Origin: Minisyncoccota bacterium
Lineage (GTDB): Bacteria > Patescibacteriota > Minisyncoccia > Phycocordibacterales > UBA9973
DNA: 64,000 nt
Direction: 5' to 3'
Assembly: GCA_031413715.1 (NCBI GenBank)
Contig: JANOFO010000007.1
Location: 90,338-154,337 of the forward strand
Of the stretch, positions 18,623-56,535 are shown piece by piece (position 1 is the first letter of the stretch; each line of letters starts with the position of its first letter). The position numbers and the translations under genes were made by a program. The notes beneath the pieces are model-generated. The model was not told the DNA's origin and made no database searches. It was given only the letters and a program-made list of their open reading frames with translations.

Positions 18623-18697
18623 GGCCCTATCGTCTAACGGTTAGGACATCGGCTTTTCAAGCCGGTAATCCGGGTTCGATTCCCGGTAGGGTCACCA
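18623..18697 (+). tRNA. tRNA-Glu (anticodon TTC), CCA encoded
   Basis: GGCCCTATCGTCTAACGGTTAGGACATCGGCTTTTCAAGCCGGTAATCCGGGTTCGATTCCCGGTAGGGTCACCA with anticodon loop TTTTCAA. Confidence 0.85.
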
Positions 18698-20309
18698 AAC
18701 GATTCACTTCATCCATAAATTCAGGTTCTATGTTGTAAACACAACATAATTCAGGAGTTTTAATAGTTGGATAGTGATAATAGAGATTGGAAGGAAAAAG
18801 TAGGGTTCTTAAAACTCTAAGGTCTTTCACATAGATGTCTTCCCAAATTTCAGGAAGATGCTTTAGAAATTCAACCCCTGTATCAACAACCCTATCTATT
18901 TCAAGTTCAGGAGAGGACAACTCACTCAAATCTTTTTGTAATTGCAATATTTCTATTTTGCACTTTTCATTTGCTGGTAAAAAGTCTTCATCTGATATCT
19001 TTGTTTCAAGTCTTAGATTTAGCAACTTATCTTTCTTGTCTCTTATTTCTGCAATCCTCATGTTAATTTTCTTTTCCGAGGTAGTAATAGAATTCAATTC
19101 ATTTTTATGAGCAAGTTTAATTGCCTCTTTGAGAACATCAAAGTGCTTATCATCAGGGGTCATCTTTGTAAGAAATTCAGTAAACTCTTCTTCCATATCT
19201 TTCTTTGGTATAGCAGTCCTCTTAGGACAATCACCACAAAAACAGCCATAATACTGGTAGTACTTGGTTTTACCTTTTGTCTTTCCTCCAGAGATACTCT
19301 TGCCACAACCACTGCATTTTATACCCCGCAGGGGATAGTCAGGACTATCCCTATTACGAGCTAACTTTCTTCCAGCCACACCTCTTTTATTACCACTACC
19401 ATTAGCTTCATTAAAGAGTTCAACAGAAATTATTGGTTTATGGCTACCTTCAACATCAACACCAAATTTTTGAACCACAATTCTGCCACAGTAAATTGGG
19501 TTTTTAAGGATTTTAGCGACTAGTTGCTTGCTTATTTTCATACCATGCCTACTTTTTTGTCCGCACTTATTTGCCAATCCTGCCAATTCCTTACAACTAT
19601 ATTTTCCCGTGATATGCTTCTCAAAAATCATTTTTATCACTGGTGCTCTTTCTGAGTGAGGAATAATAATTTTGTTGCCTAATTTATCTTTTGTATTTAC
19701 ATATCCCCAAGGAGCACCATTAGGCCATAAACCTTTGAGTGCTCTTGCTTTCATTCCTTCACCAGTTCTTTGAGACCTGACATCATTATCAAACTGAGCA
19801 AAGGCAGCCAGCATTGTTTCTTGCAATTTACCGCTAGGACTATCATCAAAAGCCTCTGTTACAGAAACTAAAGAGATATTTAATTTTTTAAGAAAGCTTC
19901 TAAATGCAAGATGTTCACCAGCGTTTCTGAAAAATCTATCAACTTTGTATATGACAACTCTGTCAATTTGTTTTTTGTTCTTATCACAGAACCTCAGCAT
20001 TTCCTGAAATCTTGTTCTGTTTTCCGTCTTCGCACTCTCTCCCTCTTCTCTAAATACTTTTAAGACAGTATGTTCAGTTCTTTTAGAGAATTCTCTGGAG
20101 AACTTTTCTTGATTGTCTAAGCTAAAATTCTCAACTTGTTCTTTTGATGACACACGCACATAGATGACATCATTTTTAGGTTTTTCTATTTTAGGTTTTA
20201 TTTTCATAAATTTGTTATTAGTTAATTTAAACTCTTTTCCCAAAAATCTCAAAATGTTTGTTCTGGAATTAAAGAGCTTATTGTTCTTGTAATTTGGTTT
20301 GCACGGCAA
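18657..20309 (-). CDS. large serine recombinase (integrase)
   Basis: VIYVRVSSKEQ catalytic-Ser motif, a recombinase domain, a zinc ribbon CSGCGK...YYGCFCGDCPK and a C-terminal coiled coil. The likely true start is the ATG at 20207 (MKIKPK...). The 3' end overlaps tRNA-Glu. Confidence 0.9.
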   Translation of the reverse strand: MPCKPNYKNNKLFNSRTNILRFLGKEFKLTNNKFMKIKPKIEKPKNDVIYVRVSSKEQVENFSLDNQEKFSREFSKRTEHTVLKVFREEGESAKTENRTRFQEMLRFCDKNKKQIDRVVIYKVDRFFRNAGEHLAFRSFLKKLNISLVSVTEAFDDSPSGKLQETMLAAFAQFDNDVRSQRTGEGMKARALKGLWPNGAPWGYVNTKDKLGNKIIIPHSERAPVIKMIFEKHITGKYSCKELAGLANKCGQKSRHGMKISKQLVAKILKNPIYCGRIVVQKFGVDVEGSHKPIISVELFNEANGSGNKRGVAGRKLARNRDSPDYPLRGIKCSGCGKSISGGKTKGKTKYYQYYGCFCGDCPKRTAIPKKDMEEEFTEFLTKMTPDDKHFDVLKEAIKLAHKNELNSITTSEKKINMRIAEIRDKKDKLLNLRLETKISDEDFLPANEKCKIEILQLQKDLSELSSPELEIDRVVDTGVEFLKHLPEIWEDIYVKDLRVLRTLLFPSNLYYHYPTIKTPELCCVYNIEPEFMDEVNRLVTLPGIEPGLPA

Positions 20310-20319
20310 ATAGCCACAT

Positions 20320-20526
20320 TTATGGGGAATTACCTGCTGACGCTAGTAAATCCTCCGCATTCTGTGGTTTTGGTGGTTTAAAGTGCTGTTTAATCTGTAG
20401 CCTGACGAGGAATAAAGCCAGTTCATATAGATTTTTGGCAGTTTTCTCTAAATCCTGTTCTGGAACTTTTGAATTGATTCTTTTCAGGTGTTCTATTATT
20501 TTTTGGACTTCTTCTGTGTTAAACAT
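20320..20526 (-). CDS. small hypothetical protein immediately upstream of the recombinase (candidate accessory or directionality factor)
   Basis: 68-aa ORF on the same strand, 11 bp from the recombinase track start; no motif recognised. Confidence 0.3.
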   Translation of the reverse strand: MFNTEEVQKIIEHLKRINSKVPEQDLEKTAKNLYELALFLVRLQIKQHFKPPKPQNAEDLLASAGNSP

Positions 20527-20598
20527 AAAAAATCCCCTGTTGGGGACTTCTTGAAGTCTATACTTTGAGTTTCTTTTAAGGTCCTAACTCATCCTAAT

Positions 20599-21327
20599 TC
20601 AGTAGTTTCTAAACACTGCTGGTTCTTGTTGGCGAAACAAGGATTGATTTATACCTTTTATTTTTAACTTCCTATTCAAATTAGCTACCAAATTTGAAAT
20701 TGATTTTTTCTCCCTCCCTCCCATTTTAGTATATTCATCTTTTTCACCTTTAATTGTTTCCCAGATATCACCATAGCTAACAGGTATTTTAGGTTTTGGT
20801 TTAAACATGATTTCACAGAAATAAGAATAATTTGTATTTGGATAAATCTTTAATTTTCTTTTACCAATAATAATTTCATTGTTTATATAATATGACTTTA
20901 GGTTAGATTTATAAATGCCTATATTTAATAATGTTTCAGTTTTTTTTAAAAATAATTTCCAGTTATATATTTCCAAAATCAATGAATCTTCATCATCTTC
21001 CAAGTAAACTCCTGAAACAGGGTTGATATCTTCTTTGGTCTGGGATACAATTTCATCCCCAATTTTAGTAATTGTTCCATTTAGAATATTTATCCATATT
21101 GACTCAGGATTAACTTCCCCTATATTCTGGTTTAGATATTGAATAAAATGCCTTGCCTCAGCTTTATTAATAGAAGATTCTTTTAGAGTATCAAAAGGTA
21201 TTTTCACTACCAAAGGCTCTTGTGTTGGAAATAGTACAGACTGTTCTTGAATCATTTTAAGCAACAGAGCTATTTGCTCTTCTTGGTGTAGGGTCAAGCT
21301 ATTTTCTTTCATACTTAAATAATACAT
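20599..21327 (-). CDS. hypothetical protein (element cargo)
   Basis: 242-aa ORF in AT-rich cargo; no motif recognised. Confidence 0.4.
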   Translation of the reverse strand: MYYLSMKENSLTLHQEEQIALLLKMIQEQSVLFPTQEPLVVKIPFDTLKESSINKAEARHFIQYLNQNIGEVNPESIWINILNGTITKIGDEIVSQTKEDINPVSGVYLEDDEDSLILEIYNWKLFLKKTETLLNIGIYKSNLKSYYINNEIIIGKRKLKIYPNTNYSYFCEIMFKPKPKIPVSYGDIWETIKGEKDEYTKMGGREKKSISNLVANLNRKLKIKGINQSLFRQQEPAVFRNY

Positions 21328-21589
21328 ACAAAAAGCAATAAAACAAAGCTTCTTTGATTTTTAGGTAAATAGAGGTAAAATGAAAGCATAATTTAATATA
21401 TAAAGTAGCCTAAACCTTTAGAAATAGAGGCATGGTGAAAAAACCAGTCAAGCATAAAGAACCTATCATATAGGGTTGCCTTGACTGGTCATATCTGGAA
21501 ACGGATATGGGGAGCGAAAGCTCTCACCTATGTGGTAGGCTTTTTGCGTCTTACCATGGGCTTATTATTAAAACGCAGAAAGAATCTTT

Positions 21590-22201
21590 ATGAAAAAATA
21601 TATTACAATTTTATTTTTAGCAGTATTAATAACCCCTTCAATTACTTTTGCTTCTTGGTGGAATCCTTTTTCTTGGTCAAAAGATTCCAAACAAGCTATA
21701 GATGTTATTGAGCCAACATTAATTCAAGCAACTGATAAATCCACCTCAGTAATTGAAACAAAACCTAAAGAAATTAAAGTTATTGAAAAAATAGTAGAGA
21801 AGCCAGTTATTCAGACTATTTCAGTTCAAGACCCTGCTTTACAGAAACGGATTAAACAACTGGAGTTAGAAAACCAAGAACTTAAATTACAGATAGAAAA
21901 ACTAAAGGCTTTACAACAACAAGTGCAAACACAAAAAGAAGAGATTGAATCATTAAAAAGTGTACCAGTCTTTTCAAAAGATAAAGAATGTGAGGAAGCA
22001 AAAGAATTCATTAATTCTACTGGTGAAAAAGTAACTGATTTAAGAGAACGGCAAGCAAAGGAAATTGCTGATTATATGAAGAACGGAATAAAATTGCAAA
22101 AAGACATAGACGCAATAAAAAATAAGTACCGTACAGAAGGAAGCCAAATTGACAAAAAAATCAAATCAGCTAAAGATAAAATTCAACTTTATTGTGATTA
22201 G
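21590..22201 (+). CDS. secreted coiled-coil protein
   Basis: Signal peptide MKKYITILFLAVLITPSITFASW, then a charged, Gln/Lys/Glu-rich coiled-coil-like region. Confidence 0.5.
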   Translation: MKKYITILFLAVLITPSITFASWWNPFSWSKDSKQAIDVIEPTLIQATDKSTSVIETKPKEIKVIEKIVEKPVIQTISVQDPALQKRIKQLELENQELKLQIEKLKALQQQVQTQKEEIESLKSVPVFSKDKECEEAKEFINSTGEKVTDLRERQAKEIADYMKNGIKLQKDIDAIKNKYRTEGSQIDKKIKSAKDKIQLYCD

Positions 22202-22235
22202 AAACTGTTGATTCTATCTAATTCTATCTACTTTT

Positions 22236-22552
22236 AAAAGACCCCTGAAAAGTGTTAAATAAACCAAATTAACCTAATTTAAAAAGACCTCAAAAAGTGT
22301 GTATTAAGCAAATTAAGCGAAATCTTTTTTGCTACTAAAACTTGGTATATATACCTAAATTAACCTAATTCTAGGATATTCCTCTAAACTGCTTATTTTA
22401 CAAATTTACCAAAATCATTTCTGGTCTCTAAAAGTGGTATTTATAGCAAATATAGCAAATCTCTTTTTGGGTCTGAAAAGTGTTAATTATATCAGTCTAA
22501 TCAGAATTTCTCTGGTGTCCAAAACTGCGAATTATATCAAAAGTATCAAACC
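22236..22552. repeat. about six degenerate direct repeats, 45 to 50 bp period, iteron-like
   Basis: Units share a core GGTCTnnAAAAGTGnTAnnTATAnC, for example gacccctgaaaagtgttaaataaacc, ggtctctaaaagtggtatttatagc, ggtctgaaaagtgttaattatatc and ggtgtccaaaactgcgaattatatc. They lie directly upstream of the CDS starting at 22590. Confidence 0.5.
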
Positions 22553-22589
22553 TTAAATTGGACTTTTAAATAGGCTTTATTGGTGTATA

Positions 22590-24107
22590 ATGCAAATTAT
22601 GTCTTCATACATTAAATCAATAAAAATTACTGAATTTGAAGGAGCTTTAGACCAGACTCTGGAATTTGAAGCGGGCTTAAATATCTTGAGCGGAGAAAAT
22701 GGAACTGGTAAAACAACGGTATTAAAGAAAATTAAAGAATTTGCAGGAGGTAATAATAGCAATTTAACTTTACTTTCTGACATTTCAGATATAACACTAC
22801 CAAACCAACTCAGTATTTACGCTCTTAGCCCAAAGAGAAATTCAGAAAAGAAGACTATAAATAATACTTTTTCACATCTCCGTTCTATAAGCAAAACGAT
22901 GGATACGCAGCTTGAGGAATTAAGAAATAGAGCAATTAACGATAATACTTTTGAAGCATATCCATCATTTGGAGAGTTATTTATTTTATATTTTGATGAA
23001 AAATGCAAAGACGGTGGAGAGCAAATTGGAAAGATGAATGAGGTAACTACTGAATTTAATAATCTTATACAAAAGGTTTTTCCTGAGTACTCCTTTGTTT
23101 CAAGTTGGGATTCCGTGTCTGGAAGACCAGATATAAACCTTAAAATCAGCAACCGCTCTCCCCTTAGTTTAGATAAATTAAGTTGTGGACAACAGGAAGT
23201 TCTGTCTTTGATATTTAACATTTATACTTCAAAGGGAAAATATAATATCTATTTAATTGATGAGCCTGAAATACATTTAAACTGGAACTTAGAAAAAGGA
23301 TTATTCCAATTTTTGGATTGGTTCTGTGTAAATCACAATAAGCAAATTATTACAGTTACTCACTCACGTACTATCTTTGAAGAACCATTTTATGAAAAGG
23401 CGAAGTTTTTGGTTTGGGAAGATGTAGTTATAAAATATCAAAGTGATATTTCTGATGCTCAGCGTGAAGCTATTGTAGGAGAATTAGCAGCAACCATAAA
23501 TGTTGTTGCTCCTACTTCTAAGACTTTCTTTGTTGAAGATAAAATGCATGAATTTGTTATTGATACTATTGCTCAAAAGCTAGGTAAAGTAATCTCAACA
23601 GTTAAGTGTGGAAACTCTGCAAATGTAAAAAGTTTCTATGGACTATCAAAAGATAAAAGTAGTGCTTGGAAAGAACATGGCTATTATGTTGTTGATGGAG
23701 ACAATGAGGGTAATCCTTTTCCAGGAGAACCAAGGTTTATCCACTTAAATAAATATTCCATTGATTCATATATATTTAACTTAGAGTTGCTTTCTGAGGT
23801 TCTAAATAAGACAGTTGAAGTTATACAAACAGAGATATTGTCTGTAATGCAGACAAAGAAATTAGCTATTTTTTCAAAAGGTAAAAATGCAAAATTTGGA
23901 CATGCATTGATAGACAAAATGACAAGCGATTACATAACAGAAGCACATTTGGCACTTGTAGATTGCACAGAAATTTTAGAAGGCTTTGCTCAATTACAAG
24001 GTAAATCATCGCAAGACTTGTTTGTAGAATATATTGAAAAGGCAAATCAAAAAGGAACATTGAATAGTATTTTTGACTCAGAACTTATTGACGTAATAAA
24101 TGCTTAA
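22590..24107 (+). CDS. OLD-family / PARIS-like ABC ATPase fused to a TOPRIM-like (DUF4435-like) C-terminal domain
   Basis: Walker A LSGENGTGKTT, ABC signature-like LSCGQQ, Walker B/D-loop IYLIDEPEIHLN and H-loop ITVTHS. The C-terminal FFVEDKMHEF...YVVDGDNEG fits a TOPRIM Glu followed by a DxD motif. Confidence 0.6.
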   Translation: MQIMSSYIKSIKITEFEGALDQTLEFEAGLNILSGENGTGKTTVLKKIKEFAGGNNSNLTLLSDISDITLPNQLSIYALSPKRNSEKKTINNTFSHLRSISKTMDTQLEELRNRAINDNTFEAYPSFGELFILYFDEKCKDGGEQIGKMNEVTTEFNNLIQKVFPEYSFVSSWDSVSGRPDINLKISNRSPLSLDKLSCGQQEVLSLIFNIYTSKGKYNIYLIDEPEIHLNWNLEKGLFQFLDWFCVNHNKQIITVTHSRTIFEEPFYEKAKFLVWEDVVIKYQSDISDAQREAIVGELAATINVVAPTSKTFFVEDKMHEFVIDTIAQKLGKVISTVKCGNSANVKSFYGLSKDKSSAWKEHGYYVVDGDNEGNPFPGEPRFIHLNKYSIDSYIFNLELLSEVLNKTVEVIQTEILSVMQTKKLAIFSKGKNAKFGHALIDKMTSDYITEAHLALVDCTEILEGFAQLQGKSSQDLFVEYIEKANQKGTLNSIFDSELIDVINA

Positions 24108-24158
24108 GGATGAATTCTCTAGATGTTTCTTTATGTAAAATTATGGTAAAATACAAAG

Positions 24159-24872
24159 ATGGAAACAGCAAGCCCTATTATAGTGGTTAGTACAGCAATT
24201 CTTACAAGCTTTTTTACATATTTTTTTACTTTCAATCAATACATAAAACAACGGCAAAGAGAAGAAGTAAGAAAAACATATATTGAAGATGGTATAGGTA
24301 GAGTAATGCAAGTCACAGAATCAGTTTCTCAGGCTTGTTATTTTAACTTTACAAAAGTAATTAGTGCACTAGATATTCTAGAAAGAAATTTTGGAGGGAA
24401 AGAGATTGAAAAAGAAATTTTAAATAATATTTTTCTGGAAATGCAAGATGTAAAAGTTGCCCCAGATTATGGAAATCTAAAATTGGCAATTTTTGATAAC
24501 CAAACCCTTATTATATGGGTAATTCAATCTTGGGCAGAATATCAAAAACTAAACGAATATCTAAGGCATTATATATTTCAAGAATTTAAAGCATACTTAA
24601 ATGATTCAACTTTATCCGAAGATAAGAGAAAAGAATTTTTGATTAAATTGAGAGAACAAGTTCGCAATCATTGGAACAGAGTAATTAACAACAATGAAAT
24701 ATTAAGGGGTCAGTTATTGTTACTACAAGTTGAAGCTGATAAAGCAAATATTTCAAATATTCAGGAGATAGATAACCTAGCAAAGAAAGAAGGGGTTTTA
24801 AAAGTTTTAAAAGCCATAGAAGATGGATATAAAAAAATTAAAGATAATCCAGTAGATATTACAACACTTTAA
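24159..24872 (+). CDS. hypothetical membrane-anchored protein downstream of the ATPase
   Basis: 237-aa ORF with an N-terminal TM helix, 52 bp after the ATPase stop on the same strand. Confidence 0.4.
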   Translation: METASPIIVVSTAILTSFFTYFFTFNQYIKQRQREEVRKTYIEDGIGRVMQVTESVSQACYFNFTKVISALDILERNFGGKEIEKEILNNIFLEMQDVKVAPDYGNLKLAIFDNQTLIIWVIQSWAEYQKLNEYLRHYIFQEFKAYLNDSTLSEDKRKEFLIKLREQVRNHWNRVINNNEILRGQLLLLQVEADKANISNIQEIDNLAKKEGVLKVLKAIEDGYKKIKDNPVDITTL

Positions 24873-45050: not shown

Positions 45051-45125
45051 TCCGGAGTAGCTCAGCGGTAGAGCAAGCGACTGTTAATCGCTTGGTCGCA
45101 GGTTCGATCCCTGCCTCCGGAGCCA
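45051..45125 (+). tRNA. tRNA-Asn (anticodon GTT), CCA encoded
   Basis: TCCGGAGTAGCTCAGCGGTAGAGCAAGCGACTGTTAATCGCTTGGTCGCAGGTTCGATCCCTGCCTCCGGAGCCA with anticodon loop CTGTTAA. Confidence 0.85.
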
Positions 45126-46727
45126 GATAGGATTAACATCAGCGAAAGCTGGTGTTTTTCCTTTATTGACGGGCTCTTTTGGCGGTTCGAAACTCTTTTT
45201 TTCGTCTACTTTTTCTCCCAACATCTGCATTACGCGGTCAGAGACCATTTTAAAGGCTTTGTGGTATGAAATCTCAACTTTCTTGCCATTTATCGTCGAG
45301 TTCGAAAATAAAAGGGACATAAGCAACTTCTTGTCGTCGACCATCTCGATACTGCTTCGGTTTACATAAATCTTTCGCGCTTCCTTTGCCATTTGTAGAA
45401 AGGTCGATCCCATATCGTAGTACTTGAGGTTGGCATTCTTATGCTTATTGAGGCTATCCATCACTTCCTCCTGCTCGATCTTGTACTGCTCATACTTTTT
45501 CTGATAGAAATCCTCGCTTATTTTGCCGTCGATCTTGTCGTCGTATATCTTGTCCAATCTCTGCGTGGCTACTTGGTAGCGTCGCTCGAGCTCGCCGGTG
45601 GCCTTTTCTCTGAATTCTATTTCCTCGCCGTGGCTTTCCTTGAGAGCTGTTTGGACCCAGCCAAGCATGTTTTCTATTGCCTCATCGTGCCTGGAGCTTA
45701 GTTGCTCAATATTCTCCATTACCTGCAAATCAACATTTTCCTGTTTGACCCATTCTCGCTGGGAACAGTTTTTATAATGGTTACAGTGGCCATACCAGTG
45801 GCCTTTCTGTATCTCCCACGTCACCTTTCCTTTGCATTCGTCACAGCGGAAGACATTTTTAAAAAGCGAATTATGCTTATTGTGTTTCGGCGTGCCGTTG
45901 CTATGCATAATGTCTTGGCACCGCATAAATAATTCTTTGGTGATCAATGGCTCATGTTCACCTTTACCGACCTTACCATTCCAACGATTCATTCCATAAT
46001 AAAACGGATCGCCGAGAAGCTGATGGACTCGCGAGTGACTCACTTTGTTTCCTCCTCGAGATCGCATGCCGAGCTTATACATTTCTTCGGCCAGTCTTTT
46101 TGTTGAGCTTACGTTTGTAGCATAGAGATCAAACATTTTCTTAACCAGTGGTGATTTTTCTTCGTCTAGCACATGAATTTTATGTCCTTTCTCGCCGATG
46201 GTTTTATATCCGAGCGGAGGCTTGCTCGGTAGCCAACCTTGAGCAAGTTTTTCTTTCTGTCCTTTCTTTACGTTTTCGGAAAGGAGTCGGATGTAGTATT
46301 CGGCCGTTGCTACTTTCACTCGCCACATAAACCATTCGTGCGACTTGGAGTCCTTGTGGAGAGTACATCCTTCTTTGACTAGATGGATCGTATGCTTTTC
46401 ATCGGCCAGTATCCACTCGTCGATTATCGGCACATCGGCAAAGTTACGGGTTAAGCGGTCAGTCGTTTCCACGAAGATCGTGTTGATCTTGGACTTGGTT
46501 ACATATTCCAACATTTCGTGAAATATCTTTCGCTGGATTTTTCCAGCGGCCGACTCTTGAATGGCAAAAACTTTTACGAGCTCAAAGCCGTTCCGGTCAG
46601 CATAATCTCGCAAAAGTTTCTCTTGAGCCGGAAGCGAATAGCCGGTGTCCTCCTGATCCTTGGAAGACACCCGGGCATAGCCTACGGCCTGCATCGATTG
46701 ATTTTCTTGATTCATTATCATAATCAT
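45084..46727 (-). CDS. large serine recombinase (integrase)
   Basis: AVGYARVSSKDQ catalytic motif, a recombinase domain, a zinc ribbon CDECKGK...HCNHYKNC and a coiled coil. The C-terminal 14 codons are antisense to the tRNA-Asn 3' half. Confidence 0.9.
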   Translation of the reverse strand: MIMIMNQENQSMQAVGYARVSSKDQEDTGYSLPAQEKLLRDYADRNGFELVKVFAIQESAAGKIQRKIFHEMLEYVTKSKINTIFVETTDRLTRNFADVPIIDEWILADEKHTIHLVKEGCTLHKDSKSHEWFMWRVKVATAEYYIRLLSENVKKGQKEKLAQGWLPSKPPLGYKTIGEKGHKIHVLDEEKSPLVKKMFDLYATNVSSTKRLAEEMYKLGMRSRGGNKVSHSRVHQLLGDPFYYGMNRWNGKVGKGEHEPLITKELFMRCQDIMHSNGTPKHNKHNSLFKNVFRCDECKGKVTWEIQKGHWYGHCNHYKNCSQREWVKQENVDLQVMENIEQLSSRHDEAIENMLGWVQTALKESHGEEIEFREKATGELERRYQVATQRLDKIYDDKIDGKISEDFYQKKYEQYKIEQEEVMDSLNKHKNANLKYYDMGSTFLQMAKEARKIYVNRSSIEMVDDKKLLMSLLFSNSTINGKKVEISYHKAFKMVSDRVMQMLGEKVDEKKSFEPPKEPVNKGKTPAFADVNPIWLRRQGSNLRPSD

Positions 46728-49732: not shown

Positions 49733-50350
49733 ATGGACAATAAACCAACCAAAGGTGAATATGTAGAGGTCTTATTGAGATCTCCTAAAACCGTCTTTTC
49801 CACCAAAGATGTTGCTTTGTTGTGGGGTGAAGAAAAAGAACAGACCGTTAGCGGACGATTGTACAAATACGTTAAGGCTGGAAAGTTGATCAAAATTCAT
49901 CGTGGTATTTATGCAAAAGACAAAAATTATAATCGCTTTGAATTGGCTACTCGCATTTATACTCCCTCCTACATAAGCTTTGAGACTGTATTGACTCGAA
50001 CTGGTATCAATTTCCAATTCTACGGAAACATTTTTGTCGCCTCGTACGTGACTCGAAATATTGAAGCTGGTGATCAGAAAATATCATTTATCCGGATGAA
50101 AGACTATGTCTTGAGTAACACTACCGGCATTGAGCATCAGGATGGCATTGCTACGGCCACCAAAGAGCGGGCTTTCTTGGACCGGATTTATGTCAGCAAG
50201 GATTATCATTTTGATAACTTAAACGCATTGGATTGGGACAAAGTCTTTCAGATTTTGCCGATCTATAACAATAAACGGATGGAGAAAAAAGTTAAATCCT
50301 ACTTTAAGCATTATAAAAGTGATCAACCAACTCAATCAAAAAATATATGA
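49733..50350 (+). CDS. abiEi: AbiEi-family antitoxin / transcriptional regulator
   Basis: N-terminal winged-HTH pattern ...RLYKYVKAGKLIKIHRGIYA. It overlaps the downstream toxin gene by 4 nt (ATGA). Confidence 0.7.
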   Translation: MDNKPTKGEYVEVLLRSPKTVFSTKDVALLWGEEKEQTVSGRLYKYVKAGKLIKIHRGIYAKDKNYNRFELATRIYTPSYISFETVLTRTGINFQFYGNIFVASYVTRNIEAGDQKISFIRMKDYVLSNTTGIEHQDGIATATKERAFLDRIYVSKDYHFDNLNALDWDKVFQILPIYNNKRMEKKVKSYFKHYKSDQPTQSKNI

Positions 50351-51042
50351 AATTAGATTACTCAAAACACAAAAATATTTTGTTGCAGATTTTGAAGGAT
50401 ATTTATTCCGATACATCTATCGCGCCTCATTTGGGCTTTAAGGGTGGAACGGCCGCTCTGTTGTTCTATGGCTTGACCCGTGATTCGGTTGATTTGGATT
50501 TTGATCTATTGAACGAAGAAAAAGAAACTGAAGTATTTGAAAAGATTCAAAAAATGATTTCCAGTTACGGGACTGTCGTTGATTCTAGAATTAAGAAATT
50601 CAATCTATTGAATGTTCTCTCATATGCCCCTGGAGCTCAAAGAATAAAGGTTGAAGTTAATCGTAGAAATTTCAGATCGAAGTATGAGCTAAAGACCTTG
50701 CTTGGCATATCAATGTTGGTAATGGCGCAGGAAGATATGTTCGCCCATAAGCTTATGGCTATGCACGAGCGTATCGGTAAAACGAGCCGTGATGTGTACG
50801 ATGTTTGGTATTTCTTGGAAAATCACTGGCCGATTAATAAAGAGATTGTTGAACAGCGTTCCGGCAAGACATTCAAGGAAGTTTTGCAATTGACTGCCGA
50901 ACAATTGGAGAAAATGGACAATAAGCACGTTCTCGATGGCTTAGGTGATTTTCTTACGGAGCCACAGAAAGACTGGGCTAGAGCAAAGTTAAAATCCGAG
51001 ACTATCTTTCTTTTGAAAGCTCGGATGGAAAGCGAAAAATAA
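50347..51042 (+). CDS. abiEii: AbiEii/AbiGii-family nucleotidyltransferase toxin (DUF1814)
   Basis: FKGGTAALLFYGLTRDSVDLDFD NTase G-x(n)-DxD motif and SRDVYDVWYF motif. Confidence 0.8.
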   Translation: MKLDYSKHKNILLQILKDIYSDTSIAPHLGFKGGTAALLFYGLTRDSVDLDFDLLNEEKETEVFEKIQKMISSYGTVVDSRIKKFNLLNVLSYAPGAQRIKVEVNRRNFRSKYELKTLLGISMLVMAQEDMFAHKLMAMHERIGKTSRDVYDVWYFLENHWPINKEIVEQRSGKTFKEVLQLTAEQLEKMDNKHVLDGLGDFLTEPQKDWARAKLKSETIFLLKARMESEK

Positions 51043-51047
51043 CATTT

Positions 51048-51239
51048 ATGCCAAAGGAAATCGCCATCAAAACTGAGAAAGAAACCTACATCAAGTGCAA
51101 GAAGTGTGGCACTGAGATTTTTTCTATTACGTATGGGGATTTAACCTCATGTAAATGTGGGGCTGTTTCTGTCGATGGCTCTAAAGAATTAGTGAGAGTT
51201 GTCGGTAAACCAGAGGATTACGAAGAAATCCAAAAATAA
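51048..51239 (+). CDS. small zinc-ribbon protein
   Basis: CKKCGTEIF...CKCGAVS CxxC...CxC pattern, 63 aa. Confidence 0.35.
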   Translation: MPKEIAIKTEKETYIKCKKCGTEIFSITYGDLTSCKCGAVSVDGSKELVRVVGKPEDYEEIQK

Positions 51240-52917
51240 ATTTATGCCTGAAAAAGATTTACAAAAAGAAATAATAGATTTGAAAGCCGAAGTAAAAAGG
51301 CTGAAAAAAAGTCGTCAGTACGGCTTGGTTTGGGAGCATAAGCCCGAGGATATTGTTTTAGAGAGCAATGAGAATATTCCCATTCTTAAGGAAGTAAAAG
51401 GCAAAAAAGTCTTTATTGATAGTTTGGTGCCAAACAACTTTTTAATCGAAGGCGATAACTATCACGCCTTGGCAGTTTTGAATTACACTCACCGCCGACA
51501 ATTTGATGTGGTTTATATCGATCCTCCCTATAACACCGGCGCTAGAGATTGGAAATACAACAATGACTTCGTTGATATAAACGATGAGTACAGACACAGT
51601 AAATGGCTGTCTTTGATGGCTAATAGACTTGTGCTAGCAAAAAATCTTCTCAAGGAAGATGGTGTACTCGTTATTGCGATCGACGACAACGAAGTGCATC
51701 ATCTACGGGTTTTACTCGAACAGCTGATGCCCTCGTATGACGTTACTTCGATAACTCTTGTGCATAATCCGAGAGGAAACATAACAAATAACTTCGCACG
51801 TACCCACGAGTATGCTCTTTTCGTTATCCCGAAAGGGCTATCTGCTATATCCCGCACGAAAAAGGATAATTCGGTATTAAGAAAAATGCGAAGATGGGGT
51901 CATAATTCAACACGAACAGCACGACCCACGATGTTTTATCCGGTCTATGTCAAAGATGGGAAGATTTCCCGAATCGGAGAAGCTCCAGAGAAAGATTTTC
52001 ATCCAAAAAATAAAAACATCAAGTTGGCCACCGGCGAAATTGAGGTATGGCCTATCGATCAGGACGGCGTAGAACGACGTTGGAATTTCGGACTTGATAG
52101 AGTGAATGATGAACTTGAGAGAATGGTTGCTGTTGAAGCAAAGAGTGAGTTTGATATTTTCTTAACGCAAGAAGATACGACGACCAAAACAGTCTGGACG
52201 GAAACGGACCTAGAAGCCGGAAGACATGGATCGACTTTGGTGAAAACAATCACAGGAAAAGACTTTCCTTTCCCTAAATCCATTCACACAGTCAGAAAGT
52301 GTTTGGAATTAATTATTGGTAATCGTCCAAATGCAAAAGTCCTAGACTATTTCGCAGGTTCCGGAACAACAGGACATGCGGTATTGGAAATCAATAAAGC
52401 CGATGGAGGCAACCGGCAATTTGTTTTGTGTACGAACAATGAGAGTAATATCTGCGAGGAAATAACGTATGAGCGAGTTAAAAGGGTAATAAAGGGCTAT
52501 AAGAACGGAAAGGATGAAAAAGTAGTGGGTATTCCAGCAAACTTTGCTTATTACAAAACAGATTTAATAAGTGTTGGCTTGCTAAAGAAAATCTCGGACG
52601 ATGCAAAAGTTAAGGTTACCTACCAAGCTGGAGAGATGATCGCTGTGCGTGAGGATACACTGAATGAAGTCGAGAAGAACGACTGGTGGCAAATCTTCGA
52701 GGGACGAGGACGAATGACTGCAATTTATTTCAAAGAGGATAAAGCCAAGCTTGCCGAACTGATAGCAAAATTGGAAAAGAAAGATGAGCCTATTGCTCTG
52801 TATATCTTCAGCTGGGGCAAGAACGAGTACAAGGGCGAATATTCTTCCGCCAGTATCCGAGTCGAGGATATTCCCGAGCCAATCCTTGAGGTGTATAAGG
52901 AACTAAACCGCCTATAA
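51199..52917 (+). CDS. mod: Type III restriction-modification methyltransferase (Mod), N6-adenine/N4-cytosine class
   Basis: VVYIDPPYNTG motif IV precedes FAGSGTTGHAV motif I (beta-class order). The likely true start is the ATG at 51244. Confidence 0.85.
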   Translation: MSVNQRITKKSKNKFMPEKDLQKEIIDLKAEVKRLKKSRQYGLVWEHKPEDIVLESNENIPILKEVKGKKVFIDSLVPNNFLIEGDNYHALAVLNYTHRRQFDVVYIDPPYNTGARDWKYNNDFVDINDEYRHSKWLSLMANRLVLAKNLLKEDGVLVIAIDDNEVHHLRVLLEQLMPSYDVTSITLVHNPRGNITNNFARTHEYALFVIPKGLSAISRTKKDNSVLRKMRRWGHNSTRTARPTMFYPVYVKDGKISRIGEAPEKDFHPKNKNIKLATGEIEVWPIDQDGVERRWNFGLDRVNDELERMVAVEAKSEFDIFLTQEDTTTKTVWTETDLEAGRHGSTLVKTITGKDFPFPKSIHTVRKCLELIIGNRPNAKVLDYFAGSGTTGHAVLEINKADGGNRQFVLCTNNESNICEEITYERVKRVIKGYKNGKDEKVVGIPANFAYYKTDLISVGLLKKISDDAKVKVTYQAGEMIAVREDTLNEVEKNDWWQIFEGRGRMTAIYFKEDKAKLAELIAKLEKKDEPIALYIFSWGKNEYKGEYSSASIRVEDIPEPILEVYKELNRL

Positions 52918-52922
52918 AATAT

Positions 52923-55199
52923 ATGTTTGCACTAAAACCATTTCAGGAAACCGCAGTATCAAAACTCAAGAACGAGTTTCTTTCGCTGTGGAAGTTACCG
53001 AATCAAAACACACCGCTTGTTTTCAAATCTCCTACCGGCTCGGGCAAGACCATTATGCTGGCGCAGTTTTTGCGCGATATCGTAAGCGATCCACGCTTTG
53101 AAGGTAATGACGTAGCGTTTGTGTGGTTCTCGTTCAGCGAGGACTCATACGCACAGAGTAAGAAGAAACTCTTTGAATACTATGGTGGCGCATCAGAACT
53201 CGACTTGATTGACCTTAACGACCTTTCCCGTGGGAAACTTCATAAAAATGATGTTTTCTTTATTAACTGGCAAAAGATTAAAGGTAAAACAAAGGATAGT
53301 CGAAAGCTTCGCCGTGAAAACGAGCAAGGACTCACATTCGACAATTTTATAAACGAAACTCATGACGATGGACGCAAAATTGTTGTGATCATCGACGAGG
53401 AGCATATTGGTTCGGATACAGAACTAGCGCTGGAAGTCGTGGACGGACTCATCAAGCCGAAAATAACGCTTCGAGTATCTGCTACGCCAAAATATATCCC
53501 TACCCGCGCCGATACTGCGGGTTATGTCGAAGTAAAGCGAGCCGAAGTTGTGGAGGCCGGACTTATTAAAGAAAAGATTGTTTTTCAAACTGAAGAAGAT
53601 TTAGGACAAAAGGCAGTCAAGAAACTCGATCAAGATGAGATGCTTTTGGAGCTTGCTTATAACAAACGGCAGGACCTTATTGATCTATACAAAGAAATTA
53701 AGACTGAAGTAAATCCGTTGGTGCTTATCCAGTTGCCAAACGATGACCAAGCCACGAAAGAAACAAATGGTACGACCAAACAACAGATTGTTTTGGACTA
53801 CTTCAAGCGCAAAGGTGTGAAAGAAAACGAGATCGCCGTATGGCTCTCAAAAGAAAAGGAGAACCTTGAGGATTTGGAAAAGAGCAATTCTCCGGTCTCA
53901 TTCCTCCTATTCAAGCAAGCGGCCGCGACCGGCTGGGATTGTCCACGGGCTGGCGTGCTTGTGATGTTTCGCGAGATTAAGAATCCGACTTTTGCCATTC
54001 AAACTGTTGGCCGTATTTTGCGTATGCCGTTTGGAACTCATTTTGCTCATCCCGAGCTTAACCTCGGTTATCTCTACACAAACTACAAGCGCAACGAGGT
54101 GCTTGCGGAATATGCCAAGTCAAAAACGGAAAATCGCCCAGCGATCAATGGCAGTTATCGTAAGAAAAACATAAAGCCGGTCAAGCTTGAATCCGTCTTT
54201 ATGACACGTGCCGACTATAACGATCTCGGTGATACATTCCAACAGACATTCAAGAAAGTTGCGGATAAGAACCTTGATATTAAGAATTTGGATTTGAAAC
54301 CAAAAGTAACGAATGGTCTTATTGTTGGTGTCGAGATTGACGACTATGACAACTTTACGAAAGAGCTTTTTGAGGAAGGTGGGAGTCATGACCAAGAAAT
54401 GTCGAGGCATGACCTCGAACGACTCTATAACCTGCTTTGTTTCAAGATAATTGCCAAGCAGACAGATGAGAATAGAAAATTTGCGCCCGAACGTTCGTGG
54501 GGAAAGCTAAAAACCGCACTCAATATCTGGCTTATGGGTAAGCTGGGAGCTTCGCGTACTGATGCTTACAAAATTATTGTAAACGATCTTGTGAGTCCGG
54601 CAGGCGCTCTTGCTCCCGTCATTGGTGATGCACTTCTTGAGTATCGCCCTCTTCGAGAGCAGGAAGTTAACAAGAAATCTGCCCGAGCGAAGCGTATCGA
54701 GCACATCGAAATTCCGCGTGAGGCACTGTTCTTTACCGATCAATATGAGTCTATTACTACAAAGAAATCCGCGATGGAACCATTTTGGCTCGAGAAAGGA
54801 ATGTTTGGTGCGGTAAATGAAAAAGCTTTTATTGAATTTCTCGAATCTCCAAAGAATAAAAACGTAGTCTGGTGGTACAAAAATGGCGACTCCGGAAGCG
54901 AGTATTTCTCAATCTCTTACTATAATTCTGATGAGAACAAGGAGAAGCTGTTTTATCCCGACTGGATCGTTCAGTCTAAAGGCGAGGTTTATATCCTTGA
55001 TACCAAAGCCGGGATAACCGCCGAGAGCAATGACACAAAATATAAAGCTGAAGCTCTACAAGCATGGCTCAAAGGTAGGAAAGGTTTTGATGGTGGTATT
55101 GCAGTTCAAGACGGACCTAATGGCTGGAAGATAAATCGGAATGCTAAATATACTTACGACTCGTCAATGAAAGGCTGGGAGGTTTTTGAATTGAAATAG
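52923..55199 (+). CDS. res: Type III restriction endonuclease / helicase subunit (Res)
   Basis: SPTGSGKT Walker A, VIIDEEH DEXH box and QTVGRILR motif VI; 758 aa, 5 bp after mod. Confidence 0.85.
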   Translation: MFALKPFQETAVSKLKNEFLSLWKLPNQNTPLVFKSPTGSGKTIMLAQFLRDIVSDPRFEGNDVAFVWFSFSEDSYAQSKKKLFEYYGGASELDLIDLNDLSRGKLHKNDVFFINWQKIKGKTKDSRKLRRENEQGLTFDNFINETHDDGRKIVVIIDEEHIGSDTELALEVVDGLIKPKITLRVSATPKYIPTRADTAGYVEVKRAEVVEAGLIKEKIVFQTEEDLGQKAVKKLDQDEMLLELAYNKRQDLIDLYKEIKTEVNPLVLIQLPNDDQATKETNGTTKQQIVLDYFKRKGVKENEIAVWLSKEKENLEDLEKSNSPVSFLLFKQAAATGWDCPRAGVLVMFREIKNPTFAIQTVGRILRMPFGTHFAHPELNLGYLYTNYKRNEVLAEYAKSKTENRPAINGSYRKKNIKPVKLESVFMTRADYNDLGDTFQQTFKKVADKNLDIKNLDLKPKVTNGLIVGVEIDDYDNFTKELFEEGGSHDQEMSRHDLERLYNLLCFKIIAKQTDENRKFAPERSWGKLKTALNIWLMGKLGASRTDAYKIIVNDLVSPAGALAPVIGDALLEYRPLREQEVNKKSARAKRIEHIEIPREALFFTDQYESITTKKSAMEPFWLEKGMFGAVNEKAFIEFLESPKNKNVVWWYKNGDSGSEYFSISYYNSDENKEKLFYPDWIVQSKGEVYILDTKAGITAESNDTKYKAEALQAWLKGRKGFDGGIAVQDGPNGWKINRNAKYTYDSSMKGWEVFELK

Positions 55200-55201
55200 A
55201 C

Positions 55202-56386
55202 ATGATATTAGAACCAGAAAAATCAGAGGAAGAAATAGTTGATAACTATCGCACCGATACGCTTTATACGCATAAATTCAAAAATGATGCCGGTAAGTAT
55301 TTCACTATTGTTTCAAGAGATGGTAATAATGTGCCAGATGCAGTCGATGTAGAACATCCTTATCCTGTAATAAGGAATAAGATTAAAACCACATTTACTT
55401 TCATTAAACAAAATAATGAAATTACGGATGTATCGTTTAAGCGCTTCAAGTACTACAAGAATAAAGGCTATGTTGAGCAAGAAGAGCAAATTGTTTTTTC
55501 ATTCCCGTTTTTCAAACAGATTATCGGCTACCTACAACTTCTCTCGGAACTAAATCTTGTTGATGTGAATGAGAGGAGAATAGCACTTGCTGATGACAAC
55601 CTACCAAATTTAGACGATGAGACCAAGAAGAAGATTAAAACTCTTTTACTACGAAAGGACGGGCAACAAATCATAGAAGAGGTGTTGGCTAGTGGAATTA
55701 TAACCTCGACTGACATAGTTAATATTGGATATCGCAAGAAGCAACTTGAGATTTTCGACAAACTTATAAACCAAGCTGATTATTTCTCGACCTATGTATC
55801 AGAAAATGAACTTACTGATACCCGCCACGAATCGGTCTGGCAACATTTTTTCCATACTAACGATTGGATTTTTGGTTATGGATTAGATTATCGTTTTCTT
55901 GGCATCCTACAAAAAGAAGCTCATGTAACCGGCTCGGATGTTGCTGGGAAGGATTCTGTGATAAACGATTTTCTATTAGGATGTAGTAAATTTACAGTTT
56001 TAGTTGAATTAAAGAAGCACGACACTCCGCTATTTGGTAAAGACAAGAATCGCTCAAATTCTTGGACTCTTTCCGATGACTTAATATCCGGTCTTTCTCA
56101 AATCCTAGAACAAAAAGCGAGCTGGCAGATTTCGGCGGAAACAAATCCTAGTGGAAATTTTGATGATCAAGGAAACCCAATAAAACAAAAGACTATTGAC
56201 CCCAAAAGTATTCTTGTTATCGGATCAACTAAACAATTTGACGGGGATGAAAAAGAAAAACAAATCAAAGCAAAAACATTTGAACTCTTTCGGCGTGATT
56301 CTAGGAATATAGAAATTCTCACTTACGATGAATTGTACGAGAGGGCGAAGTTTATTGTTGAACATAAATTTAAAGCTAAAAAATAA
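55202..56386 (+). CDS. DUF4263 (Shedu SduA-like) PD-(D/E)xK nuclease-domain protein
   Basis: C-terminal ...WQHFFHTNDWIFGY...DFLLGCSKFTVLVELKKHDTPLF...SQILEQKASWQ...KSILVIGSTKQF...NIEILTYDELYERAKFIVEH matches the DUF4263 layout (D-x(n)-ExK, then ...TYDdLl). Its start is 2 bp after the res stop. Confidence 0.55.
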   Translation: MILEPEKSEEEIVDNYRTDTLYTHKFKNDAGKYFTIVSRDGNNVPDAVDVEHPYPVIRNKIKTTFTFIKQNNEITDVSFKRFKYYKNKGYVEQEEQIVFSFPFFKQIIGYLQLLSELNLVDVNERRIALADDNLPNLDDETKKKIKTLLLRKDGQQIIEEVLASGIITSTDIVNIGYRKKQLEIFDKLINQADYFSTYVSENELTDTRHESVWQHFFHTNDWIFGYGLDYRFLGILQKEAHVTGSDVAGKDSVINDFLLGCSKFTVLVELKKHDTPLFGKDKNRSNSWTLSDDLISGLSQILEQKASWQISAETNPSGNFDDQGNPIKQKTIDPKSILVIGSTKQFDGDEKEKQIKAKTFELFRRDSRNIEILTYDELYERAKFIVEHKFKAKK

Positions 56387-56535
56387 TGAGAAGAAAACGG
56401 GACCCGAAATTTAAGGTTGAGGTGGTTTATAAAGGGGTACCGGACAAGAAAGATAACGTGCGCCAACTTTGGGATTTGCTAGTTTCCTTGCCTGATCCAG
56501 AGAAAGTGTCAAGGGAGATTAAAAAGGCTAATTGA
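56386..56535 (+). CDS. 49-aa ORF translationally coupled (TAATG) to the DUF4263 gene
   Basis: Manual translation MRRKRDPKFKVEVVYKGVPDKKDNVRQLWDLLVSLPDPEKVSREIKKAN. Confidence 0.2.
   Translation: MRRKRDPKFKVEVVYKGVPDKKDNVRQLWDLLVSLPDPEKVSREIKKAN

Follow-up and report, generated by a model that had tools for sequence, protein, structure and literature searches.

A probable self-contained Shedu nuclease as interchangeable accessory of a Type III restriction-modification operon on a Minisyncoccota genomic island

A Type III restriction-modification (R-M) operon that is followed directly by a gene for a Shedu nuclease, SduA, is found in a 64,000-nucleotide stretch of DNA (the window) from a Minisyncoccota bacterium (assembly GCA_031413715.1, contig JANOFO010000007.1, positions 90,338 to 154,337 of the forward strand). 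Four open reading frames (ORFs) on the plus strand form the block: mod (51244-52917), for a Type III beta-class N6-adenine DNA methyltransferase of 557 amino acids (aa) counted from its ATG; res (52923-55199), for the Type III restriction subunit of 758 aa; sduA (55202-56386), for a 394-aa Shedu nuclease with an N-terminal region; and orf49 (56386-56535), a small basic ORF of 49 aa that overlaps the sduA stop codon. An earlier model-made reading of the sequence (the original prediction) had described the same four ORFs as a composite defence operon, and the ORFs and their spacings of 5, 2 and -1 bp are confirmed when the junctions are read off the sequence. The mod stop at 52917 and the res ATG at 52923 are separated by 5 bp (TAA-aatat-ATG), the res stop at 55199 and the sduA ATG at 55202 are separated by 2 bp (TAG-ac-ATG), and the sduA stop and orf49 start overlap in the TAATG at 56383-56387. 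The start of mod had been placed at a TTG at 51199, from which the gene would overlap a small upstream ORF; the ATG at 51244 is most likely the start, and the TTG probably is not, because every Mod homologue aligns from the first residue of the ATG form. The upstream ORF (51048-51239, plus strand, 63 aa) encodes a DUF7695 zinc ribbon (PF24749, 3.5e-13) and stops 4 bp ahead of the mod ATG. A copy with 43% identity lies directly upstream of mod in L091, the locus with the closest R-M relative, and was not found in the other loci; the ORF may encode a small regulator, or may open the operon as its first gene.

The assignment of mod and res to a Type III system, which the original prediction had also made, is based on Pfam and PADLOC matches, sequence motifs and the mod-then-res gene order. 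Mod matches PF01555 (N6_N4_Mtase, 1.4e-24) and 12 PADLOC MTase_III models (1e-25 to 1e-70; best 2.1e-70), and its translation contains VYIDPPYNTG followed by DYFAGSGTTG, with DPPY ahead of FAGSG in the order characteristic of the beta class. Mod is thus a beta-class N6/N4 methyltransferase encoded upstream of res, as a Type III assignment demands. Res matches PF04851 (ResIII, 1.3e-14), Helicase_C and PADLOC REase_III (1.4e-18), and possesses the superfamily 2 (SF2) helicase motifs I (TGSGKT, residues 38-43), II (DEEH, 158-161), III (SATP, 186-189) and VI (QTVGRILR, 360-367). Near its C-terminus is a PD...(D/E)xK motif composed of YPDW (678-681) and LDTK (692-695). No sequence match to Res was found among PDB chains or NCBIfam models, and its C-terminal half had no match in PDB, NCBIfam or Pfam; the endonuclease is assigned by motif only. 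In an alignment of family members the helicase and nuclease motifs are invariant or nearly so (83/83). Because the YPDW...LDTK motif is conserved across 83 relatives, Res is predicted to carry its own nuclease, and the combination of SF2 helicase motifs with a C-terminal PD-(D/E)xK endonuclease motif is that of a Type III restriction subunit. A role for SduA as a substitute for a nuclease missing from Res was rejected, given the conservation of the Res nuclease motif throughout the family.

The canonical Type III systems EcoP15I and EcoP1I share with the operon of the window the mod-then-res order, a beta-class Mod, and a Res in which an SF2 ATPase is followed by a C-terminal PD-(D/E)xK motif. 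In contrast to the canonical enzymes, the Res described here is short, is too divergent to match PDB chains, and is matched only weakly by REase_III models, and mod is preceded by a small zinc-ribbon ORF and res followed by a variable gene.

The third gene had been read as a DUF4263 (Shedu-like) nuclease of the PD-(D/E)xK type, and a search against PF14082 upholds that call: residues 209-379 match SduA_C (1.7e-29) with 103.5 bits against a gathering cut-off of 27. SduA also matches the PADLOC SduA model PDLC00392 over its full length (8.9e-148). The protein can be divided into a region of beta-sheet and helix (residues 1-135), a helical linker (136-200), and the DUF4263 PD-(D/E)xK nuclease (209-379). 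The catalytic residues E210, D256, E269, K271 and Q300 are all invariant in 80 homologues, and align with E204, D249, E264, K266 and Q295 of the Bacillus cereus Shedu protein as listed by Gu et al. (bioRxiv 10.1101/2023.08.10.552793). A structural model of SduA resembles the solved Shedu structures, the models being of moderate confidence. The nuclease fold and the catalytic E, D, ExK and Q are shared with the Shedu proteins of B. cereus (PDB 8TI8/8TI9, Gu et al.) and Escherichia coli (PDB 8PS4/8PS5, Loeff et al.), to which SduA is similar in length, with a layout of N-terminal region, helical linker and C-terminal DUF4263 domain. With the catalytic motifs of Mod, Res and SduA all intact, the operon is predicted to encode two complete nuclease systems.

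Relatives of SduA often adjoin R-M genes. A scan of one genome per species yielded 80 loci with full-length SduA relatives (39-88% identity). Gene calling in the surveys took the longest ORFs, a crude heuristic, the seeds for R-M genes in the positional survey were picked from the neighbouring genes of the SduA loci, with Pfam confirming representatives, and several metagenome loci nearly duplicate one another (L102, L104, L107, L108 and L110, for example), so that the counts are approximate. Of 77 loci, 31 (~40%) have a co-oriented R-M gene as the immediate neighbour of the SduA relative, a recurrence that the original prediction had anticipated. R-M genes are found at position -1 of SduA in 27 of 73 loci (37%) and at +1 in 10 of 73, always co-oriented, and the rate at more than five genes from SduA is 0-2%. 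Because R-M genes are enriched at -1 and +1 and are always co-oriented, the adjacency is real and more than chance would give. A Res homologue lies directly upstream of SduA, 0-4 bp away, in six loci (L002, L003, L007, L008, L009 and L047), five of which have a Mod homologue too. Many other SduA genes reside in Type I operons, either in the order hsdM-hsdS-[sduA]-hsdR or after hsdR, with sduA placed between hsdS and hsdR in several of them (L016, L019, L030, L042 and L048). Further relatives lie beside MmeI-like or Eco57I-like Type IIG enzymes, or beside fused M-S proteins.

Two of the loci with a helicase gene ahead of SduA have features of their own. In a Candidatus Poribacteria chromosome (L007; OZ242354.1, 876084-897244; host genome 6.5 Mb) mod, res and sduA lie together as a block beside a serine recombinase homologue, their Res and SduA proteins sharing 84% and 75% identity with those of the window; this arrangement indicates putative transfer of mod-res-sduA across phyla. 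In L008 (2568-11170) the SduA relative (73-75% identical) follows a 936-aa helicase with HsdR_N and ResIII domains, the C-terminal half of which is 61% identical to the Res of the window. Upstream are a 473-aa protein without a family match and a 941-aa NERD/UvrD_C/TBP-TOTE protein, and no methyltransferase was seen there; this locus may represent a different conflict system that reuses the C-terminal module of Res.

The pairing of a Shedu nuclease with a Type III system had been taken not to be described as a standard architecture, but Gu et al. (bioRxiv 10.1101/2023.08.10.552793; later Mol Cell) count 602 of 5,499 Shedu genes within Type I, II, III or IV R-M systems and 87 within BREX systems, and propose that Shedu may complement both. 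The R-M-encoded Shedu genes of that study, Type III cases included, resemble the one described here in being co-oriented and located inside an R-M operon or at its end. R-M adjacency in the SduA subfamily of the window is ~40%, versus 11% for all Shedu in Gu et al. Their work provides a count and examples without an analysis of dependence, and what is added here is the higher R-M adjacency of this subfamily, the interchangeability of its partners, the variable slot of the Type III operon, and the survival of SduA after decay of the R-M system.

Close copies of SduA are associated with R-M systems of different types. A copy with 91% identity lies behind a Type IIS AlwI system (L081), one with 87% behind hsdM-hsdS-hsdR (L001), and one with 80% behind an NgoPII Type IIP system (L084) on a similar element with recombinase and primase genes; another, 84% identical, stands alone (L082). 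An intact SduA (82% identical) is also retained behind a 5′-truncated res (L087:1616-4283; likewise L088:621-3294). The res remnant in these loci is 89% identical to Res residues 278-757 and has lost the lobe with Walker A and DEEH, and in L087 mod is replaced by a divergently oriented gene for a ParB-N6_N4 methyltransferase. The solitary copy and the one behind a truncated res lend indirect support to the idea that an SduA gene would suffice by itself for anti-phage defence. The N-terminal domain of SduA is 82-92% identical to that of the window across these partner contexts and 85% identical in the solitary copy, and its identity does not vary with the type of R-M partner. The identities of SduA and Res to the proteins of the window are moreover discordant, at 88% for SduA and 44% for Res in L002, and at 75% and 84% respectively in L007.

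The reverse survey, which started from Res, covered 80 metagenome loci (L090-L169) with Res 68-96% identical, 63 of which have at least 1.3 kb of sequence downstream. A DUF4263 gene lies downstream of res in 5 of these 63 close relatives, and L105, with 1,298 bp downstream and hence 2 bp under the cutoff, is a sixth; the SduA subfamily of the window was seen there only in L097 and L098 (78% identity). Because so few close Res relatives carry a DUF4263 gene downstream, the R-M system is, judged by gene content, independent of SduA. Neither co-occurrence in most relatives nor co-divergence, both of which would be expected of an obligate R-M-Shedu composite, was found. A hybrid module, as had been suggested, or a link specific to Type III systems is not supported by these comparisons, in which close SduA copies accompany Type I, IIS and IIP systems or none, identities are discordant, and most Res relatives have no DUF4263 gene. 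The surveys instead point to SduA being a self-contained portable add-on that would be neither Type III-specific nor a hybrid subunit.

Tight spacing had likewise been taken as a sign of functional coupling. Gaps of 20 bp or less separate 16 of the 42 same-strand gene pairs of the window, so short gaps are ordinary in this DNA, and after this control the 2 bp between res and sduA was dropped as an independent argument for coupling. The gap is consistent with co-transcription and is by itself no evidence for functional coupling. A terminator scan found 12 terminator-like sites against 5.5 expected from shuffled sequence, none of them between res and sduA, and a promoter scan found no excess of promoter-like sites (16 against 17.2 expected).

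The position after res is variable within the R-M lineage. The loci L090 and L091 carry essentially the R-M system of the window (Res 96%, Mod 95-97% identical) and have other genes after res: a 503-aa protein without a family match in L090, and an SLFN/AlbA_2 protein and, behind it, a 244-aa protein in L091. At the DNA level, the window and L091 are 90% identical over 51228-55205; the homology breaks exactly at the ATG of the slot gene and is found again from 56378, 8 nucleotides short of the sduA stop, onwards through orf49. In the Res survey, a co-oriented ORF with a length of 100 aa or more begins no further than 20 bp after res in 47 of 70 loci. The ORFs group into 25 clusters that are unrelated in sequence, so that the slot holds at least 25 gene families, of which Shedu is one. 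Other identified occupants are a CBASS oligonucleotide cyclase (L122, 2e-109), ABC ATPases like AriA, PtuA or GajA (L117 and L128), SLFN/AlbA_2 proteins (L091 and L096), and a PDC-M36A-like candidate (L103). Most occupants, representing more than 15 families, had no Pfam or PADLOC match where tested.

The slot is bounded on its right by orf49. Neither Pfam nor PADLOC gave a family match for this ORF, and no homologue was found downstream of other SduA genes in the 80 genome loci or in contig look-ups, where the small ORFs behind SduA are unrelated to it. A copy is conserved in L091 (L091:5657-5808) with 65% aa and 82% nucleotide identity and a frame preserved through compensating indels, and there it follows a different slot gene with the same TAATG overlap. 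Together with the 8 nucleotides ahead of it, orf49 (56378-56535) constitutes the conserved right flank of the slot. As a partner of Shedu it was rejected, being absent after other SduA genes and present behind a different slot gene in L091. The fourth ORF, once counted as part of the composite operon, stays with the R-M backbone in that locus, and probably represents a genuine small gene belonging to this backbone.

With co-oriented and unrelated occupants at the same position, the slot harbours embedded or appended defence genes in the sense of Payne et al. (bioRxiv 10.1101/2024.01.29.577857), who document the embedding of defence genes in Hma, BREX, DISARM and Type I R-M systems (‘guilt by embedding’) and discuss PrrC in EcoprrI as a back-up within an R-M operon. 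TgvAB within a Type I R-M system of Vibrio cholerae is a further example. Common to PrrC/EcoprrI, TgvAB and the systems of Payne et al. is an independent, co-oriented defence gene inside or at the end of a defence operon, with variable occupants. The locus of the window differs from them in that Type III is not among the surrounding systems named in the available part of Payne et al., and in that its slot is at the 3′-end of the operon, after res, and not internal.

The operon is carried by what appears to be a mobile genomic island. A tRNA-Asn gene (45051-45125, plus strand; ARAGORN) defines its left end, and the 3′-end of this tRNA gene is overlapped by the gene for a large serine recombinase with Resolvase and Recombinase domains (45084-46727, minus strand). 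Several small minus-strand ORFs follow, and then, directly upstream of the R-M operon and on the same strand, AbiEi (49733-50350, plus; PADLOC, 1.4e-57) and AbiEii (50347-51042, plus; PADLOC, 5.4e-78; PF08843, 8.8e-19), a type IV toxin-antitoxin or abortive-infection pair. A pair with 72% identity lies downstream of a related R-M system in L148 (8442-9742); because it is upstream in the window and downstream in L148, AbiE travels with the R-M lineage in differing positions. In many related loci a serine recombinase is encoded at a distance of 2-3 kb ahead of mod. The right end of the island, at about 56.55-56.64 kb, is placed by gene content and the G+C shift only: G+C rises from 0.37-0.44 to 0.50 past 57 kb, where housekeeping-type genes begin, and neither an attR copy of the tRNA-Asn 3′-end nor long direct repeats were found when sought for this end. 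The homologues are annotated as Patescibacteria or Paceibacterota. A second island of the same design is present in the window (18623-24872), with a large serine recombinase (18657-20309, minus strand) overlapping a tRNA-Glu (18623-18697). Its cargo has a low G+C of 0.29-0.32, and includes an AriA/AriAB-like ABC ATPase (22590-24107; PADLOC, 1e-29) and unannotated ORFs of 203, 237 and 242 aa.

Collectively, these observations are best explained by a self-contained Shedu nuclease that serves as an interchangeable accessory of a self-sufficient Type III R-M system, the two forming a layered defence and not a hybrid one, a reading that we regard as probable. The region would be the cargo of a serine-recombinase island integrated at tRNA-Asn, with AbiEi/AbiEii, DUF7695, mod, res, the slot gene and orf49 in that order. 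Mod would be expected to methylate host sites and so protect host DNA, and Res, with its SF2 ATPase and PD-(D/E)xK nuclease, would be expected to cut incoming unmethylated DNA. Given the 2 bp gap and lack of a predicted terminator, sduA is probably transcribed from the R-M operon, and SduA would act independently through its own N-terminal sensor or regulatory region, giving a layered defence whose parts may be inherited and expressed together. Any cooperation would presumably proceed via a signal common to all R-M types and not via protein contacts, because the same SduA sits beside non-homologous R-M enzymes. The simplest links would be co-inheritance and co-expression, and a further candidate, extrapolated from distant homologues, is the free DNA ends made by restriction. 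The B. cereus Shedu protein reportedly, according to a published abstract, cleaves near ends with a 3′ overhang. Sensing of DNA ends has been described for E. coli SduA (Loeff et al.).

Several points weigh against this explanation. The adjacency of ~40%, set against 11% for all Shedu, hints at more than co-inheritance, perhaps at a functional dependence on restriction. Co-transcription is deduced solely from the 2 bp gap and the absent predicted terminator. The surveys themselves are built on crude longest-ORF calls, neighbour-derived R-M seeds and some near-duplicate loci.

A possible extension, which we hold only tentatively, is that this R-M lineage, which is frequent on serine-recombinase islands of Patescibacteria-like genomes, offers a dedicated expression slot 3′ of res, in which unrelated effectors are swapped as ORF-sized cassettes (from the start codon to just before the stop), and that the Shedu subfamily might be specialised for the products of restriction. 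If this is true, the slot after res would be a source of new defence genes, and specialisation for restriction products would account for the ~40% adjacency to every type of R-M system.

It is also conceivable, though unlikely, that the site after res is only a hot spot for recombination or expression, with Shedu hitch-hiking as one cargo of many and no interplay with restriction. The 25 unrelated clusters in the slot, the precise boundaries of the cassette swap, the ordinariness of short gaps in these genomes, and the fact that most slot genes are independent defence types are all in keeping with this idea. A single local hot spot cannot, however, explain why the SduA subfamily is found beside four R-M types in several phyla, always co-oriented and enriched at -1 and +1 only, and Gu et al. 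find the same pattern across all Shedu.

We consider it quite improbable that SduA is a PrrC-like back-up guard, latent while the R-M system works and set free once that system is disabled by an anti-restriction protein from a phage, with DNA destruction or abortive infection as the outcome. The embedding resembles that of prrC inside the EcoprrI hsd operon, for which Payne et al. provide the precedent, SduA lies between hsdS and hsdR in the five Type I loci named above, and in B. cereus Shedu the N-terminal domain mediates auto-inhibition (Gu et al.). Unlike PrrC in EcoprrI, the locus of the window gives no indication of PrrC-like masking. A latent complex would need contacts with the unrelated Res, HsdR, AlwI and NgoPII proteins, yet the N-terminal domain of SduA is as conserved across these partners (82-92%) as in the solitary copy (85%), and SduA is kept behind a truncated res and as a stand-alone gene.

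That Res and SduA form a true hybrid enzyme, as originally proposed, with the Type III helicase delivering DNA to the Shedu nuclease in one complex, is very improbable: the 2 bp spacing does suggest coupled synthesis, and the C-terminal half of Res recurs upstream of SduA in the L008 helicase (61% identical) and the L087 remnant (89%), but Res retains its own PD...(D/E)xK nuclease in 83/83 relatives, ~90% of close Res relatives are without Shedu, and SduA occurs with non-homologous partners or alone and does not co-diverge with Res.

As an instance of a Shedu gene in an R-M operon, the locus is a further example of an arrangement already catalogued and leaves existing knowledge unchanged. The portability and partner independence of R-M-linked Shedu argue against models of specific contact, and favour co-inheritance, co-expression or cooperation through a common signal. 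The most useful lead is the position behind res, which in this widespread Type III lineage is a variable slot with mostly uncharacterised occupants that are candidates for defence genes. To our knowledge, reduced genomes of the Patescibacteria type seldom carry CRISPR-Cas, and the immunity of these organisms may therefore depend to an important extent on nuclease defences that are stacked on small integrative islands.

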